A DNA stretch of 27,432 bases, taken from the IMG/VR virus record IMGVR_UViG_2695420763_000018, one strand, 5' to 3'. Each line of letters opens with the position of its first letter. The first letter of the stretch is position 1. The notes beneath the pieces were generated by a model. The model saw nothing but the letters and a program-made list of their open reading frames with translations. It was not told the DNA's origin and did not search any database. A program made the translations under genes and the position numbers. This document shows, in pieces, positions 6,559 through 25,901 of the stretch. The stretch is from a virus (lineage: Duplodnaviria > Heunggongvirae > Uroviricota > Caudoviricetes).

Positions 6559-7023
6559 TTACTTTAAACACTGCTCGGTTATGTATTGCTGAGCACCTTC
6601 AAGTTGGGCCTGCATCATTACCAGTCGTTCCCGGAGGGTGAAATAATCCCGTTCAGCGGTGTCTGCCAGTCGGGGGGAGGCTGCATTATCCACGCCGGAG
6701 GCGGTGGTGGCTTCACGCACTGACTGACAGACTGCTTTGATGTGCAACCGACGACGACCAGCGGCAACATCATCACGCAGAGCATCATTTTCAGCTTTCG
6801 CATCAGCTAACTCCTTCGTGTATTTTGCATCGAGCGCAGCAACATCACGCTGACGCATCTGCATGTCAGTAATTGCCGCGTTCGCCAGCTTCAGTTCTCT
6901 GGCATTTTTGTCGCGCTGGGCTTTGTAGGTAATGGCGTTATCACGGTAATGATTAACAGCCCATGACAGGCAGACGATGATGCAGATAACCAGAGCGGAG
7001 ATAATCGCGGTTACTCTGTTCAT
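6559..7023 (-). CDS. rzpR: i-spanin Rz
   Basis: N-terminal TM segment then coiled-coil-like region. ATG at 7023 overlaps the endolysin TGA stop (ATGA). Intact here, whereas I recall it as truncated in K-12. Confidence 0.8.
6618..6803 (-). CDS. rzoR: o-spanin Rz1 lipoprotein, embedded in the +1 frame of Rz
   Basis: 61-aa ORF wholly inside Rz; signal peptide with lipobox VVVGC and proline-rich mature part (PPPPP, PPP). Confidence 0.8.
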
Positions 7024-7517
7024 TGCTGACCCCACAAACAGATTTCACGCTCAATCTCACGACGAGTCATGAGACCTTTCCATTGCTTACCGCCAGCATA
7101 TGTCCAGCGACGTAGCTGATCACATGCGCCTTTGATATCGCCCTGGTTTATTTTGCGAAGAAGCGTCGATGTTCTGAAATTGCCAGCACCCACGTTGTAA
7201 ACGAATGAGTAAAGAGCGCCGCGCGTTGTTTCCGGTATATCGACTTTGATGTACGTGTTAATTTGTCTGGCGACAGTGGCAAGGTCTTTATTCAAGAGTG
7301 TTTTGCATTCTGCTTTGGTATACGTTTTACCGAGCATGATGTCTTTTCCTGTATGCCCGTGACATACAGTCCATACACCAACAATATCTTTGTATGGTAT
7401 GTAGCTGACACCTTCCAGACCATCGTTACCACTTGGGCCAGTGATTAACACTGATGCTATAGCAATTGCTCCGCCACCAATAGCAGCAGCAACGACTTTT
7501 CGTAATGATGGAGGCAT
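7020..7517 (-). CDS. SAR endolysin (phage 21 R-type lysozyme)
   Basis: 165 aa; N-terminal Gly/Ala-rich signal-anchor-release segment [18 protein letters not shown] followed by a lysozyme catalytic region; closely matches my recollection of R21. Confidence 0.85.
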
Positions 7518-7732
7518 TATTCACCTCTCGCAGCCTTGCGCTTATCTTCTTTAATCTTGAAATAAAGGTTTGTCAGGTACGTCAGCAGGCCAAATACCAG
7601 ACTACCCAGCACACCGATTGCAGCCCACTGTGACGGAGTTACTCTATCGAGCAACTGTAAAAACCAGTAGCCAGCACTGCCTGCGGAGGTGCCGTAGGCA
7701 ATGCCTGTTGAAATTTTGTCCATGGATTTCAT
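7517..7732 (-). CDS. pinholin (phage 21 S-type) with dual-start motif MKSM
   Basis: Matches the S21 pinholin from [26 protein letters not shown] onward; M1 and M4 give the antiholin/holin pair. The 19 codons upstream in the tracked ORF (to 7789) are probably not translated. Confidence 0.8.
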
Positions 7733-7832
7733 AGCCTCACCTCCGCACGGAACGGATGGCATAGTTATTATGTGTAGGCTTTCAGACACATCTATCAGAG
7801 CCTTAATTGATATATATGCTGGAGACGATGCA

Positions 7833-7858
7833 ATATAAAAAGCTCGCCGTAGCGAGCT
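7833..7858 (-). terminator. intrinsic terminator downstream of lipoprotein gene 1, upstream of the holin
   Basis: Stem agctcgc (7841-7847), loop cgta, stem gcgagct (7852-7858); on the minus strand followed by a U-run (plus-strand ataaaa 7835-7840). Confidence 0.6.
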
Positions 7859-7983
7859 AATAAAATGTATTTCTCTGATATTATGTTTATTTGTATTAGC
7901 TCAGACTTGACATCACAGGTTTCGTATATAGAACATCATCAAATCTGTCAGTTTGCTATGAATGAGATATAGTAATTGAAGAG

Positions 7984-8379
7984 CTAACCTCGCATGTCAA
8001 AGCCAGATTTCTGAAAATCTCTGTAGACTTCCGGATTGTTGAAGGCCGGAAATTTGGCTTTATGAGCTGCGGACTTTATCGCTTCGCAATAGGCTTTATC
8101 ACCGTTACTGGTAGATATTTTTAACGCCGTGCCATCCTGAGAGAATTCCATATGCAACCTGCATTTTTTCCCTTTCCAGTTATGCGGCTCATCAAGTTTG
8201 GCATTAATTGCAGCTCTGATTCCCCGCGCTTGCGCCCCCCATTCATCCTGATCATCCCAGCGTCCTGAACTGCAACTACCTGTAGCAGTAGTTTTGTGGC
8301 AATCTGAAGGGTGTAAAGGTGTGCATCCCGCAACAAAACCGACCCAAAAAGTCAACATAACGATTTTCTTTAATCCCAC
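7984..8379 (-). CDS. lipoprotein with TolA-domain-III-like C-terminal domain (paralogue 1)
   Basis: 131 aa; signal peptide with lipobox FVAGC; GTG start at 8379 preceded by GAGGAG at 6-nt spacing. C-terminal half aligns with paralogue 2 (GKxCxLxM...G..L......GD...C.EA..A...A..PA...PEVY..FQ). Confidence 0.7.
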   Translation of the reverse strand: MGLKKIVMLTFWVGFVAGCTPLHPSDCHKTTATGSCSSGRWDDQDEWGAQARGIRAAINAKLDEPHNWKGKKCRLHMEFSQDGTALKISTSNGDKAYCEAIKSAAHKAKFPAFNNPEVYRDFQKSGFDMRG

Positions 8380-8529
8380 TTCTTGCTCCTCAATCCATTA
8401 AAATCTCAGCAATAGTAGTTGTTACGTCCGCCACTGGCTCAGAGCTGACTATCCGCTAAATTTAGCTCAGTGCCGTAGCTGTGTCAGAACAAACCTAAGC
8501 CGAAACCGTTTATTACAAAACAATAAATA

Positions 8530-8958
8530 TCAGGGTTTAAAATCCAGCACCCCATTTTGAAATACTTTATATACTTCCGGCGAAGGGGGGGCAGGTATAT
8601 CAGCATTCTTTATCGCATTCATCGCTTCACGACATAAATCGAGGTCTCCACTTTCTCTTTTAACCTCCAGTAGAAGGCCATTCGGGGCCATATGCATTCT
8701 CAGTGTACACTCTTTTCCTGAATACTTACTCGCATCCCCGAACTGTTTTTCGATGGCGCTCTTGATTTGATGGGCATACAGACGGATATCCTCACTAACA
8801 TCAGAAGTACGTTCAGATGAACTCACATACTGTGTCTCTATTGCTTTATCGGAGTAATATGATGTACGGTCATGATAATTTGTCGATACAGCATCAGTGC
8901 ACCCGATAATAATCCCACTAATAATCAACGTAAGAATTGATGCGCTACGAAAACCCAT
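8530..8958 (-). CDS. lipoprotein with TolA-domain-III-like C-terminal domain (paralogue 2)
   Basis: 142 aa; lipobox IIIGC. C-terminal segment QIKSAIEKQFGDASKYSGKECTLRMHMAPNGLLLEVKRESGDLDLCREAMNAIKNADIPAPPSPEVYKVFQNGVLDFKP closely resembles the TolA C-terminus as I remember it. Confidence 0.75.
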   Translation of the reverse strand: MGFRSASILTLIISGIIIGCTDAVSTNYHDRTSYYSDKAIETQYVSSSERTSDVSEDIRLYAHQIKSAIEKQFGDASKYSGKECTLRMHMAPNGLLLEVKRESGDLDLCREAMNAIKNADIPAPPSPEVYKVFQNGVLDFKP

Positions 8959-9534
8959 TTTTCCTCACATATGTCATATAGTAAAGGATTATATATACCG
9001 TTGTTTTGGACGCTCAAACAGCGAATCAGATCAAATAAAACGCACATTTGTTAACATTTACACAAAGTCTGCGTGGGATATTCTGAAAGAATATCCATAA
9101 TGTGGAGAGAATCTATTGAAGTGCATGGTGCCGGGTGCCTCCCGGTGAACAAAATGTTCGTGATACCTGTCGGCGACAGAAAAGGTTAATGGTATCACCC
9201 CACCGCACAGGGGGATTCACCATGCAGGAGTTTTCTTAGCAAACTCACTGCGCGCCCGGCAACTCCCAACCACATAAAATGCGGAGTTTGTGGCATTTGT
9301 GCATATAACTCGCAGGAATTATCTTAAAAAACTGATGTCGATCCGGATTAAAAAGAAGCAGGTCATCATCAGATGACTGGAAAAAAGGAAAACAAAAAAT
9401 ACTCATCATACAGTTTTGATTGCAGGGATGAGCCTGCTATGCACAATATAAGCAAGATAAAAATATGCAGGCATATTATTTCGGATTTTGTTATTAACAC
9501 AACCTTTTTAATAATCATTTGGCATACAATAAAC

Positions 9535-10445: not shown

Positions 10446-10476
10446 TAAAAAAACCGCATTAAGCGGTTTTTTTACG
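10446..10476. terminator. bidirectional intrinsic terminator about 80-110 nt downstream of Q (tR'-like)
   Basis: aaaaaaaccgc-attaa-gcggttttttt: GC stem flanked by A7 and T7 runs, so a hairpin plus U-tract forms on either strand. Confidence 0.7.
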
Positions 10477-10553
10477 ATGTCCATGTCTGCAATCCGCCTC
10501 GCGATACAGCTTTGCGAAGCATAGCAAAATTGAAGCAGTTTATACGTAAGAAA

Positions 10554-11096
10554 TCAAGCCATTTTCTCAGCAAATGATTCACGCATGGGAATATATAGGG
10601 CATACTCAGCAACAGCTAACCAATTAGCAATCCGTTTTTCGCATGTGCTAAAACACCACTCTGGGTGTGCATCATTTAGCAATTCAGCCATTTTACGCTT
10701 AGTCATCCCCCGCCCTTCATAGCGTTGCCGGAGAATGCAAATCAATCCTGGATGCTCTGCCAGCACCTCACTTATGACTCGATCAATACATAACGCCTCT
10801 GCATCAGTACAATGCGCCAGCCAGCTCTTTTGCTTGCCGTTGATCATCTCTCGCAAAAACGCTTCCAGCTCAGCTTTCTCTATTCCCGCTTTTTTCATTC
10901 TGCGCAGGGCTTCATTGATGGCTGTTTTCGTCAATTTTTTGGATGCCAACAACTGATTGAACATATTTCCTGACCTGCCACCGCCAATATACGACCAGCG
11001 CCCCCACATACGCAGTTTGCCCTGAATCCAGACACTTTCCAGCGTGGCGAGACGAAGGTGTTCTCCGCTTTTTCCTGTATTCGTTGGGTAAATCAC
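10554..11096 (-). CDS. late-gene antiterminator Q
   Basis: Segment LRMWGRW and downstream region resemble the Q-antiterminator family as I recall it. Proposed start is GTG at 11096 (codon 41 of the tracked ORF), preceded by AGGAGG at 7-nt spacing and overlapping the upstream TGA (GTGA). Confidence 0.65.
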   Translation of the reverse strand: MIYPTNTGKSGEHLRLATLESVWIQGKLRMWGRWSYIGGGRSGNMFNQLLASKKLTKTAINEALRRMKKAGIEKAELEAFLREMINGKQKSWLAHCTDAEALCIDRVISEVLAEHPGLICILRQRYEGRGMTKRKMAELLNDAHPEWCFSTCEKRIANWLAVAEYALYIPMRESFAEKMA

Positions 11097-11383
11097 AAAT
11101 ATCCCTCCTTTCTCCAGATTTCTTGTGTGCGAAAAACACCTTCTGCATGCATCAGGCGTAATTCTTCTTTGGTGTAATCGCTGGTTTTTACCCGCCCGTC
11201 GATTAGATCGTGGCATGAGCTACAGGCAATCGCCGCCTGCATATCGTGTGGTTTTGTCGCTGTTCCGCACGTTCCCGCCAGTCGGTAATGCGCCAGCACA
11301 GACGTTTCCGGATCGTGATTGCAGTAGCCAGGAATTCTGACGGTGCACATCTGCCCCCGCGCCGCTTTACGTAAATCCACCAT
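11093..11383 (-). CDS. YbcO-like (DUF1364) putative nuclease
   Basis: 96 aa with Cys/His cluster (CNHDPETSVLAHYR...CSSCHDLIDG); GGAG 8 nt upstream of ATG 11383; the ATG overlaps the TAA of the upstream gene (TAATG). Confidence 0.65.
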   Translation of the reverse strand: MVDLRKAARGQMCTVRIPGYCNHDPETSVLAHYRLAGTCGTATKPHDMQAAIACSSCHDLIDGRVKTSDYTKEELRLMHAEGVFRTQEIWRKEGYL

Positions 11384-13273: not shown

Positions 13274-13399
13274 TCACAGCCTCCGTCTGCCAGTTCGGAT
13301 TCGTACCTCGCAGAGGTCTTTCCTCGTTACCAGTGCCGTCACTATGACGGTTAAACAGATGACGATCAGGGCGATTAACATCGCCTTTTGCTGCTTCAT
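13274..13399 (-). CDS. hok: Hok-family type I toxin homologue with divergent, shortened C-terminus (41 codons); possibly decayed
   Basis: Product MKQQKAMLIALIVICLTVIVTALVTRKDLCEVRIRTG matches the RelF/HokD N-terminal 37 residues as I recall them, then reads RRRL-stop where canonical Hok continues QTEVAVF...; AGGAG SD upstream; a 19-codon upstream ORF ends on ATGA at the hok start (mok-like coupling). Confidence 0.6.
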   Translation of the reverse strand: MKQQKAMLIALIVICLTVIVTALVTRKDLCEVRIRTGRRRL

Positions 13400-13921
13400 A
13401 GCCTGCTTCTCCTTGACCTTTCGGTCCGTAAGAGGCTAATCTCTATGTGTCGCATAGATATGGCCTCAGATTAATGTTAAACGTCTTGCAGGACGCGTAA
13501 TGTTAACTGGGGCTTTTCTCTATCTACCTTTGGTGTTCATGCCCGAGGCAGATAGCCTCAAGCACCCACAGCAATTCTAACTATCCAATACATCACTGCC
13601 AACACTTTAAACTCTTACCCTTTAAAACAAGAACAAAATTCAACCAATCAGCATTGGGCGTATACTCATATCCTAGAGAAAACAACTCTTTCTGTACTAT
13701 TTATATCCATATGATTTATAAGCATTTGCCACTTGCCATAGCCGCACAATGACAGTTTGCCATTTGATGTCAATAGATAAAAATGATCGTTTTCAATGAG
13801 TTACATACTTGCAAGGCGTTGCACATCAGGCCCGATTACGTCAGTATCAAAAGATTACAGATGGTGCATTACTGCCACCTCGCCTTAATGTTCCAGAACT
13901 CTCCAACTTGAGGAATTTTCA

Positions 13922-25504: not shown

Positions 25505-25699
25505 ATGAGATATGACAATGTTAAACCATGTCCATTTTGTGGTTGTCCATCAGTAACGGTGAAAGCCATTTCAGGATATTACCGAGCGAAGTGTAACGGA
25601 TGCGAATCCCGAACCGGTTATGGTGGAAGTGAAAAAGAAGCACTCGAAAGATGGAATAAACGAACCACTGGAAATAATAATGGAGGTATTCATGTATAA
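25505..25699 (+). CDS. ralR: RalR (Lar), restriction alleviation protein and type I TA toxin
   Basis: 64 aa from MRYDNVKPCPFCGCPSVTVKAISGYYRAKCNGCES...; zinc-ribbon-like Cys pairs. Confidence 0.85.
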   Translation: MRYDNVKPCPFCGCPSVTVKAISGYYRAKCNGCESRTGYGGSEKEALERWNKRTTGNNNGGIHV

Positions 25700-25901
25700 A
25701 ATTACCGCCACTATTGAAAAGGAAGGTGGCACTCCTACTAACTGGACAAGATATTCAAAATCTAAACTAACGAAATCAGAATGCGAAAAAATGCTCTCAG
25801 GTAAAAAAGAAGCAGGCGTTTCCAGAGAGCAGAAAGTAAAACTGATAAATTTTAATTGCGAGAAACTTCAGTCCTCGAGAATTGCATTGTATTCAAATTA
25901 A
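25692..25901 (+). CDS. ydaC: YdaC
   Basis: 69 aa from MYKITATIEKEGG...; GGAGGT SD; its ATG overlaps the ralR stop region. Confidence 0.75.
   Translation: MYKITATIEKEGGTPTNWTRYSKSKLTKSECEKMLSGKKEAGVSREQKVKLINFNCEKLQSSRIALYSN

Follow-up and report, generated by a model that had tools for sequence, protein, structure and literature searches.

Two predicted prophage lipoproteins with a TolA domain III fold are candidate co-receptor decoys

Why should a prophage carry two small lipoproteins that end in the C-terminal domain of the host protein TolA? The question is raised by a pair of adjacent genes, here called P1 and P2, in 27,432 nucleotides of DNA from a virus of the class Caudoviricetes (IMG/VR record IMGVR_UViG_2695420763_000018; 'the window' hereafter denotes this whole stretch). 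A first-pass annotation, made from the letters without database searches, had placed the pair between the antiterminator gene Q and the holin gene of a prophage and had suggested that a lipid-anchored copy of TolA domain III (TolAIII) could titrate the phage and colicin proteins that dock on TolA. Both open reading frames (ORFs) are indeed present, on the minus strand, and they occupy the slot described (Table 1). Our analysis indicates, from sequence comparison and structure prediction, that P1 and P2 carry a genuine TolAIII fold and are functional genes, and it leads us to a tentative proposal—that they may be TolA co-receptor decoys uncoupled from the Tol motor.

The evidence for the fold comes from profile searches and from models, the two checks that the first-pass annotation had named, and both are positive. 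Against the Pfam family PF06519 (TolA_C), which has a gathering threshold of 25 bits, P1 scores 82.6 bits (E=2.4e-23, model positions 4–96 of 96) and P2 scores 54.6 bits (E=1.3e-14, model positions 10–92 of 96). In phmmer comparisons with TolAIII sequences from the Protein Data Bank (PDB; 1S62, 3QDP, 2X9A and 1TOL), E is ~5e-28 for P1 and ~5e-9 for P2; the TolA C-terminal sequence cited in the first-pass annotation matches that in the PDB. P1 shares 59% identity (52/88) with E. coli TolA residues 334–421. In the AlphaFold2 (AF2) models of both proteins, the C-terminal ~88 residues have a predicted local distance difference test score (pLDDT) of ~90–95 (TolAIII domain >90 in P1 and ~90 in P2), and the N-terminal 45–52 residues are disordered. 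TolAIII entries are the top seven PDB matches for both models in Foldseek: P1 superposes on 2x9a_B with a root-mean-square deviation (rmsd) of 0.7 Å (target-normalized template-modelling score (TMt) 0.93, 60% identity) and P2 on 3qdp with an rmsd of 1.2 Å (TMt 0.91, 31% identity). PDB 2X9A is itself a complex of TolAIII with the g3p domain of phage IF1. Moreover, the Cys pair of TolAIII (equivalents of C363 and C388) is invariant in the aligned members of the P1 and P2 families.

In both proteins, the domain is preceded by a lipoprotein signal peptide, as the first-pass annotation had noted, with the lipobox IIGC followed by TD in P1 and VAGC followed by TP in P2, both of which fit the pattern [LVI][ASTVI][GAS]C. 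Across 18 aligned family members, the Gly-Cys pair of the lipobox shows little or no variation, and a lipobox pattern recurs in nearly all full-length homologues, with T, A or S at position +2. Because the lipoboxes lack Asp at +2, the Lol-avoidance rule—evidence at the level of a pattern—predicts sorting to the outer membrane, and P1 and P2 are thus predicted to be outer-membrane lipoproteins tethered at the inner face of that membrane. The mature linkers between anchor and domain span 26–34 residues and are of low confidence in the models. In P2, the mature N terminus is common to the lineage (C-(A/T)PLHPSxCHKTTATGSCSSGRWDDQDEW) and contains an extra Cys pair. This extension (residues 20–45, window ~8322–8245) is conserved across genera to the same degree as the folded domain, and it is modelled as a short hairpin at low confidence (pLDDT ~50).

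We also considered whether P1 and P2 are complete TolA proteins and rejected this possibility: they have neither the transmembrane domain I nor the helical domain II, and they are only 142 and 131 residues long. The full-length TolA equivalog NF007065 has a cut-off of 213 bits, above the scores of both P1 (107.8) and P2 (53.7), and for TIGR02794, with a cut-off of 59.45 bits, P1 lies above (75.6) and P2 below (47.2). Both full-length models align at their C-terminal end only (positions 265–362 of 362 for TIGR02794 and 293–386 of 387 for NF007065). Lacking the TolA membrane anchor and domain II, the two proteins would not be coupled to the TolQR motor. That P1 passes the TIGR02794 cut-off on the domain alone probably explains why the NCBI Prokaryotic Genome Annotation Pipeline (PGAP) labels the intact P1 gene 'tolA, pseudogene, missing N-terminus' and gives it 261 nt only (NZ_CP087290.1, 14831–15091), a call that, on the evidence of the ORF, we regard as a systematic annotation artefact.

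The likeness to TolA is already visible in automatic labels ('TolA C-terminal domain-containing protein', 'tolA family protein'), and PGAP names P2 'cell envelope integrity TolA C-terminal domain-containing protein'. Both proteins fall into PHROG 5772 (E~1e-62 to 1e-65), where the function is listed as unknown; the NCBI name and the Gene Ontology term 'bacteriocin transport' attached to proteins of this type are labels inherited from the TolA domain. Literature searches on TolA-like prophage or plasmid lipoproteins and on TolA decoys did not turn up any work on P1 or P2, or on TolA decoys that occur naturally, and two apparent leads (PMC3210124 and PMC2948877) concern host tolA only.

The pseudogene label suggests a sceptical explanation, namely that P1 is a tolA fragment stranded in a defective prophage and P2 a passenger ORF. 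The host element is of the Rac type, and among the P1 copies in databases are some with a truncation, a frameshift at a poly-C tract or a fusion to seemingly unrelated N-terminal sequences, all of which would fit non-functional debris. However, P1 and P2 are both intact ORFs, and each has a start codon, a Shine–Dalgarno sequence and a lipoprotein signal peptide of its own; tolA has no such signal peptide. The intact form of P1 dominates (520+57 cluster members), and frame, lipobox and domain are all preserved in P1 variants with identities as low as 66%. By the Nei–Gojobori method, the ratio of nonsynonymous to synonymous substitution rates (dN/dS) between P1 and a 66%-identical variant is 0.36 overall, with values of 0.24 for the TolAIII domain and 0.59 for the linker, and for P2 it is 0.04–0.13 at dS 0.5–1.0 in comparisons with copies from an IncK plasmid, Enterobacter, Serratia and Citrobacter. 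In addition, the block works inside mEp460_ev081, a viable recombinant phage in which the Q-to-lysis segment is the same as in E. coli prophages. ORF integrity, signal peptides and dN/dS led us to reject the pseudogene-fragment explanation, which we consider very improbable; given the low dN/dS, P1 and P2 are, by this evolutionary evidence, functional genes and not debris.

In some database P1 variants, for example P0015 and P0010, the poly-C tract has 6 or 9 C, and the proteins (157–158 residues) are frameshifted, with the last ~18 residues replaced. These variants could be sequencing errors, or they could reflect slipped-strand switching that turns the ligand-binding strand off.

The first-pass annotation had described the two genes as paralogous, with one a diverged copy of the other, which overstates their kinship. 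The identity between P1 and P2 is only ~27%, lower than that between P1 and TolA, and each gene occurs alone elsewhere, on which grounds a tandem duplication was rejected. By these comparisons, they are separate lineages with separate histories, unrelated by recent descent. For P1, the closest full-length-type matches in an exhaustive search of 1.84 billion representatives are 41–57% identical; together with the higher identity to E. coli TolA, this fits the capture of an enterobacterial TolAIII. The P2 lineage has a far wider distribution than that of P1 and comprises 370 clusters at 78–89% identity from E. coli, Shigella, Citrobacter, Enterobacter, Klebsiella, Raoultella and Serratia. Where plasmid and chromosomal copies of P2 are compared with the window, DNA homology is confined to positions 8414..7981, that is, to the ribosome-binding site and the ORF. 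The GC content of the P1–P2 unit is 0.39–0.46, compared with 0.46–0.55 for the flanking phage genes.

To what extent, then, do P1 and P2 present the surfaces that TolA ligands recognize? Colicin A contacts TolAIII at L375–P380, K368, K379 and K396 (PMC3365938), whereas g3p-N1, colicin N and TolB share helix α2 (residues 334–349) and strand β3 (residues 412–421), with backbone hydrogen bonds to β3 at D418 and K420 (PMC4339652). We scored conservation at these published positions (16 in α2, 10 in β3 and 8 in the colicin A site). P1 is identical at 11 of the α2 positions, at 7 of the β3 positions, with LDFKP intact, and at 4 of the colicin A positions, where 7 are similar; K379 and K396 are kept and K368 is replaced by His. 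The motif VLDFKP is invariant in the aligned P1 variants. By contrast, P2 is identical at only 4, 2 and 2 positions, respectively, and reads FDMRG in β3. The surface mimicry suggested in the first-pass annotation therefore stands for P1, which by this measure is a credible mimic of the TolA docking surfaces, and fails for P2, to which a simple decoy logic applies less well. As strand addition is largely backbone-based, sequence alone cannot settle ligand binding by either protein.

These observations suggest a possible function for the pair. We propose, tentatively and as a reading with close to even prospects, that P1 and P2 are uncoupled TolA co-receptor decoys that protect the lysogen or the plasmid host. 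The lipid anchor in the outer membrane and the flexible linker would hold the TolAIII domain free of the TolQR motor, where an incoming ligand would reach it before the real TolA, which must span the periplasm. The decoy would then trap the ligand in a dead-end complex. Candidate ligands are the N1 domain of filamentous-phage g3p and the translocation domains of group A colicins such as N, A, K and E1, and the outcome would be phage exclusion or colicin tolerance. P1, with the known TolA ligand surfaces kept, would be the more likely decoy for ligands specific to E. coli; P2, with its remodelled and strongly conserved surface, probably binds a different ligand by the same mode of strand addition. 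A decoy function is plausible and fits the distribution of the family, which rides on prophages and conjugative plasmids, the usual seat of exclusion genes. There is also a reported laboratory precedent: TolAIII exported to the periplasm is said to have made cells colicin tolerant, with a leaky outer membrane (Levengood-Freyermuth, Click and Webster, 1993, J Bacteriol 175:222).

Several observations weigh against the decoy proposal. In terms of sequence conservation, P2 preserves neither the site shared by g3p, colicin N and TolB nor the colicin A site, and the very low dN/dS of the gene and its stable placement in the chromosomes of Enterobacter and Serratia are more reminiscent of a housekeeping partner interaction than of an arms-race decoy. 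P1 keeps the strand that TolB binds, and periplasmic TolAIII is said to have made the outer membrane leaky in the 1993 experiment, so a decoy should carry a cost. Strand-augmentation complexes of the TolA–TolB type are weak (Kd 40–250 µM; PMC7066135), and a decoy may therefore need a high local concentration. The promoter candidate upstream of P1 is a consensus match only, and similar matches are about equally frequent in the shuffled region. PADLOC-DB 2.0 has no family that matches P1 or P2 at E≤1. Finally, when 50,697 deposited phage genomes were searched with both proteins by tblastn, P1 and P2 were found in mEp460_ev081 only.

The replaced surface of P2 points to a further possibility. By the conservation scores, the conserved surface of P2 probably serves a partner other than the known TolA ligands, and it may be that P2 in particular is a retargeted strand-addition binder—a TolA/TonB-type scaffold with its specificity moved to another periplasm-exposed peptide, such as an outer-membrane transporter's TonB box or another bacteriocin or phage protein—that would block another entry route in the manner of Cor and Llp. 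P2 keeps the TolAIII fold at low sequence identity with both ligand sites replaced and is extremely conserved across genera, the Cys-containing N-terminal extension included. The C-terminal domains of TolA and TonB are structural homologues, both of which bind by strand augmentation (PMC7066135), and P1 gives a weak match to Pfam TonB_2 (E=5.6e-5). However, P2 has no TonB-family match in Pfam and no candidate partner, and TonB C-terminal domains rank far below TolAIII in Foldseek (E>7e-3, TM<0.5). We therefore think retargeting quite unlikely.

The genomic position and expression signals of the pair bear on both the decoy proposal and its main rival. The terminator that the first-pass annotation had placed after the pair is well supported, with a folding free energy (dG) of −13 kcal/mol (z=−4.2) and none of 200 shuffled sequences as stable. 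With a promoter-like site ahead of P1, a strong terminator behind P2 and a location between Q and the holin gene, P1–P2 looks like a moron-like unit. With this terminator in place, the lysogen could express the pair with transcription stopping short of the lysis genes; Q-modified late transcription would read through the signal.

The main rival to the decoy proposal is that P1 and P2 modulate the host Tol–Pal system: by binding TolB at its N-terminal TolA box (or Pal), they would compete with TolA at the outer membrane and thereby weaken Tol–Pal locally or temporarily. At a high level, made from the Q-dependent late transcript, they could loosen the outer membrane and aid lysis and the release of virions or toxin; at a low level, in lysogens or plasmid hosts, they could increase vesiculation or ease the assembly of pili or of a type IV secretion system. 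The two genes lie in the late operon and immediately precede the holin gene, a P1 variant lies between Q and a nanS-p-type esterase gene, and P2 is found on the virulence plasmid pO157. P1 retains β3 and most of α2, the site that TolB shares with g3p and colicin N (PMC4339652), and the purifying selection on P2 fits a conserved host partner. Periplasmic TolAIII, moreover, is said to have produced a leaky tol phenotype in the 1993 experiment. Against such a role, the presence of a terminator and a promoter-like site points to expression that is independent of lysis, and P2 also occurs on plasmids and at chromosomal loci that have no lysis genes. Constitutive inhibition of Tol–Pal would be costly, yet 16–23% of E. 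coli genomes carry the genes (P1 and P2, respectively). Moreover, Tyr353 of TolA (Tyr352 in the numbering of the mutant study) is implicated in TolB binding (PMC2707214); Gly, Lys or Arg takes its place in the P1 family, and Asp in P2, which hints weakly that TolB binding is reduced. On this evidence, we judge Tol–Pal modulation to be unlikely. The same observations bear on the claim in the first-pass annotation that a decoy would leave Tol–Pal undisturbed: with g3p and colicin N binding where TolB binds and P1 keeping that strand, the claim is doubtful, and the replacement of Tyr353 is the one hint in its favour.

A survey of 5426 complete E. coli genomes detects P1 in 888, essentially always on the chromosome. 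P2 was found in 1269 of them, with 825 of its sites on chromosomes and 525 on plasmids; a near-identical P1–P2 tandem pair occurs in ~760–785. The 66%-identical P1 variant (locus L013, 5001–5429) is found without P2 in other lambdoid prophages, where the gene order is Q (Antiterm), TfpB, an AraC-like regulator, the P1 variant, a SASA/DUF1737 (nanS-p-type) esterase, DUF1378, DUF826 and the holin. In Stx phages, this position is that of the stx genes.

P2 also travels on plasmids. A copy with 88% identity is present on ~600 plasmids in PLSDB, and in 5 of the 5 I-complex contexts sampled (plasmids or contigs; IncK2/Z and IncI1/B/O, MOBP, MPF_I; loci L015, L018, L021, L022 and L023), P2 lies 68–104 bp downstream of the relaxase gene nikB on the same strand. 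A scan of the nikB–P2 gap in these contexts found neither a promoter nor a GC-rich terminator, and in L021 a strong terminator lies ~285 nt past the stop codon of the P2-type gene. P2 is possibly co-transcribed with the relaxase gene in I-complex plasmids. On pO157, the virulence plasmid of E. coli O157:H7, a P2-type gene lies between the leading-region genes psiB–psiA–hok and toxB (L017, 5965–6396; L020, 3465–3896). The Enterobacter, Serratia and Citrobacter copies of P2 are orphans on the chromosome. The Serratia marcescens homologue (L007, 6957–8736) adjoins a GmrSD_N (DUF262) gene and a gene for a HEPN-domain protein, surroundings that look like a defence-island neighbourhood and that count in favour of the decoy proposal.

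A third lineage of lipoproteins consisting of TolAIII only was recognized as a 35%-identical match on ~310 plasmids, mostly Klebsiella IncF. The copy on an IncFIB/FII plasmid of Klebsiella pneumoniae (L019, 4812–5246) encodes 144 residues, with the lipobox LITAC followed by S and the C terminus ALDFRL, and it adjoins a thioredoxin-fold gene. Among the best 146 new representative matches to P1, 83 are no longer than 170 residues and 47 have a recognizable lipobox, and TolAIII-only lipoproteins thus appear to be a large uncharacterized class. The remote short members lie mostly on short metagenomic contigs or are chromosomal orphans, contexts that are uninformative.

TolA-dependent filamentous phages use conjugative pili as their primary receptors, and a link between a decoy role and conjugative plasmids through pilus-specific phages is suggestive. 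A broader version of the decoy proposal, which we hold to be doubtful, is that lipid-anchored TolAIII-only proteins form a widespread, unrecognized class of mobile-element co-receptor decoys. In that case, prophages would have recruited such proteins against colicins and rival phages, and conjugative plasmids to shield pilus-bearing donors from pilus-specific, TolA-dependent filamentous phages, in at least three independent lineages (P1, P2 and the Klebsiella IncF type).

Table 1. Positions of P1, P2 and neighbouring features in the window
Feature	Position	Strand	Details
P1, 142-residue lipoprotein precursor	8530..8958	minus	ATG start; GAGG Shine–Dalgarno; opens MGFRSASILTLIISGIIIGC, then TD
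P1 signal peptide	8958–8899		residues 1–20
P1 disordered linker			residues 21–54
P1 TolAIII domain	8796–8533		residues 55–142
Poly-C(7) tract inside P1	8585..8591	minus	read from sequence; just before the codons of the C-terminal strand β3
P2, 131-residue lipoprotein precursor	7984..8379	minus	GTG start; GAGGAG Shine–Dalgarno; opens MGLKKIVMLTFWVGFVAGC, then TP
P2 signal peptide			residues 1–19
P2 conserved Cys-containing linker			
P2 TolAIII-fold domain	8247–7987		residues 45–131
Sigma-70-like promoter candidate	8988..9017	minus	TTGAGC-18-TATAAT; 10/12 consensus match; ~30 nt upstream of the P1 ATG
Intrinsic terminator closing the P1–P2 unit, upstream of the holin gene	7832..7858	minus	AGCTCGC-TACG-GCGAGCT then TTTTTAT; stem 7858–7841 plus T-run
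STnc100-family prophage small RNA (sRNA) or leader element	9069..9255	minus	Rfam RF02076, 86.6 bits (gathering score 47), E=1.6e-17; ~110 nt upstream of the P1 start
isrK-like Rfam match, weak	10447–10520	minus	21.6 bits (gathering score 50); directly downstream of the Q-like gene
Q-like late antiterminator gene, upstream slot boundary	10554..11216	minus	Pfam DUF1133, 352.7 bits; weak Phage_antitermQ match; PHROG 753 'anti-termination protein Q-like', E=3e-78
P21-type class II holin gene (essD), downstream slot boundary	7517..7789	minus	Pfam Phage_holin_2_1, E=4.5e-35
Lysozyme gene	7020–7517		Pfam Phage_lysozyme; downstream of the holin gene
Rz/Rz1 genes	6559–7035		Pfam Phage_lysis; downstream of the holin gene
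sok antitoxin RNA (hok/sok) and RalA antitoxin RNA (RalR/RalA)	13397–13567 and 25698–25876	minus	

The surroundings of the pair (Table 1) are those of a Rac-type prophage, with RalA and sok RNAs in the window. Both RNAs belong to toxin–antitoxin modules typical of such prophages. A chromosome of avian pathogenic E. coli that is 98.6–99.9% identical to the window contains racR, ydaS/T, sieB, recE, intR and trkG, and in a 99.9%-identical genome PGAP names the lysis genes essD and rrrD. The isrK-like match region may be part of the late-promoter leader. tRNA genes are common after Q; in the ~1.6 kb between Q and P1, a search found no convincing ORFs and no tRNA genes. The STnc100 match ends in a 3′ hairpin that lacks the U-tail of the family consensus, so its transcript may read through into P1. 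STnc100 is a known family of prophage sRNAs related to PasD sRNAs (2026 preprint, bioRxiv 10.64898/2026.05.13.724894).

If the decoy proposal is correct, P1 and P2 would represent a natural defence that imitates a periplasmic co-receptor of the host rather than masking a surface receptor, found in about one in five sequenced E. coli, as well as on pO157 and on epidemic resistance plasmids of the I-complex and Klebsiella IncF types. Such a defence would bear on colicin and bacteriocin therapeutics, on plasmid curing by filamentous or pilus-targeted phages and on surveys of colicin tolerance, and it would explain how conjugative plasmids can expose pili despite pilus-specific phages. If instead the proteins dampen Tol–Pal, they would be mobile-element regulators of outer-membrane stability and vesiculation in pathogens. 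At a minimum, the analysis corrects a systematic error, the annotation of intact lipoprotein genes as 'tolA pseudogene' or 'TolA', and defines a large uncharacterized family.

How would such proteins compare with known systems? P1 and P2 resemble E. coli TolAIII (1S62, 3QDP, 1TOL, 2X9A and 3QDR) in their predicted fold and disulfide pair, and P1 also in its LDFKP strand and most of α2. They differ from TolA in the loss of domains I and II, and hence of any link to TolQR and the proton motive force, and in the anchor, which is a helix in the inner membrane in TolA and is predicted to be a lipid in the outer membrane in P1 and P2. P2 departs further, with both ligand sites replaced, and Tyr353 is replaced in both proteins. 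The nearest experimental counterparts are artificial periplasmic TolAIII (Levengood-Freyermuth et al., 1993) and periplasmic C-terminal fragments of TonB, which reportedly acted as dominant-negative competitors and gave colicin tolerance or blocked transport, the mechanism that we propose for P1 and P2. These are said to have been soluble, overproduced laboratory constructs that caused leakiness, whereas P1 and P2 are natural, predicted to be lipid-anchored, carried on mobile elements and diverged from TolA.

As putative exclusion factors, P1 and P2 would join a known kind, the mobile-element exclusion lipoproteins, with a TolA likeness that automatic annotation already records. Cor (of phi80, N15 and HK022), Llp (of T5) and TraT are likewise small outer-membrane lipoproteins of mobile elements, encoded by moron-type genes, that block the entry of competitors; P1 and P2 are not known to be related to them in sequence or fold. 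Cor and Llp act on the outer-membrane receptor FhuA, which they bind and close, whereas P1 and P2 would imitate a periplasmic co-receptor and titrate the invader. The closest parallel in target is g3p-mediated exclusion, in which g3p made by the host cell occupies TolA, and which also acts on the g3p–TolAIII interaction to prevent the entry of filamentous phage. There, a ligand blocks the receptor; P1 and P2 would be the mirror image, in which a copy of the receptor blocks the ligand.

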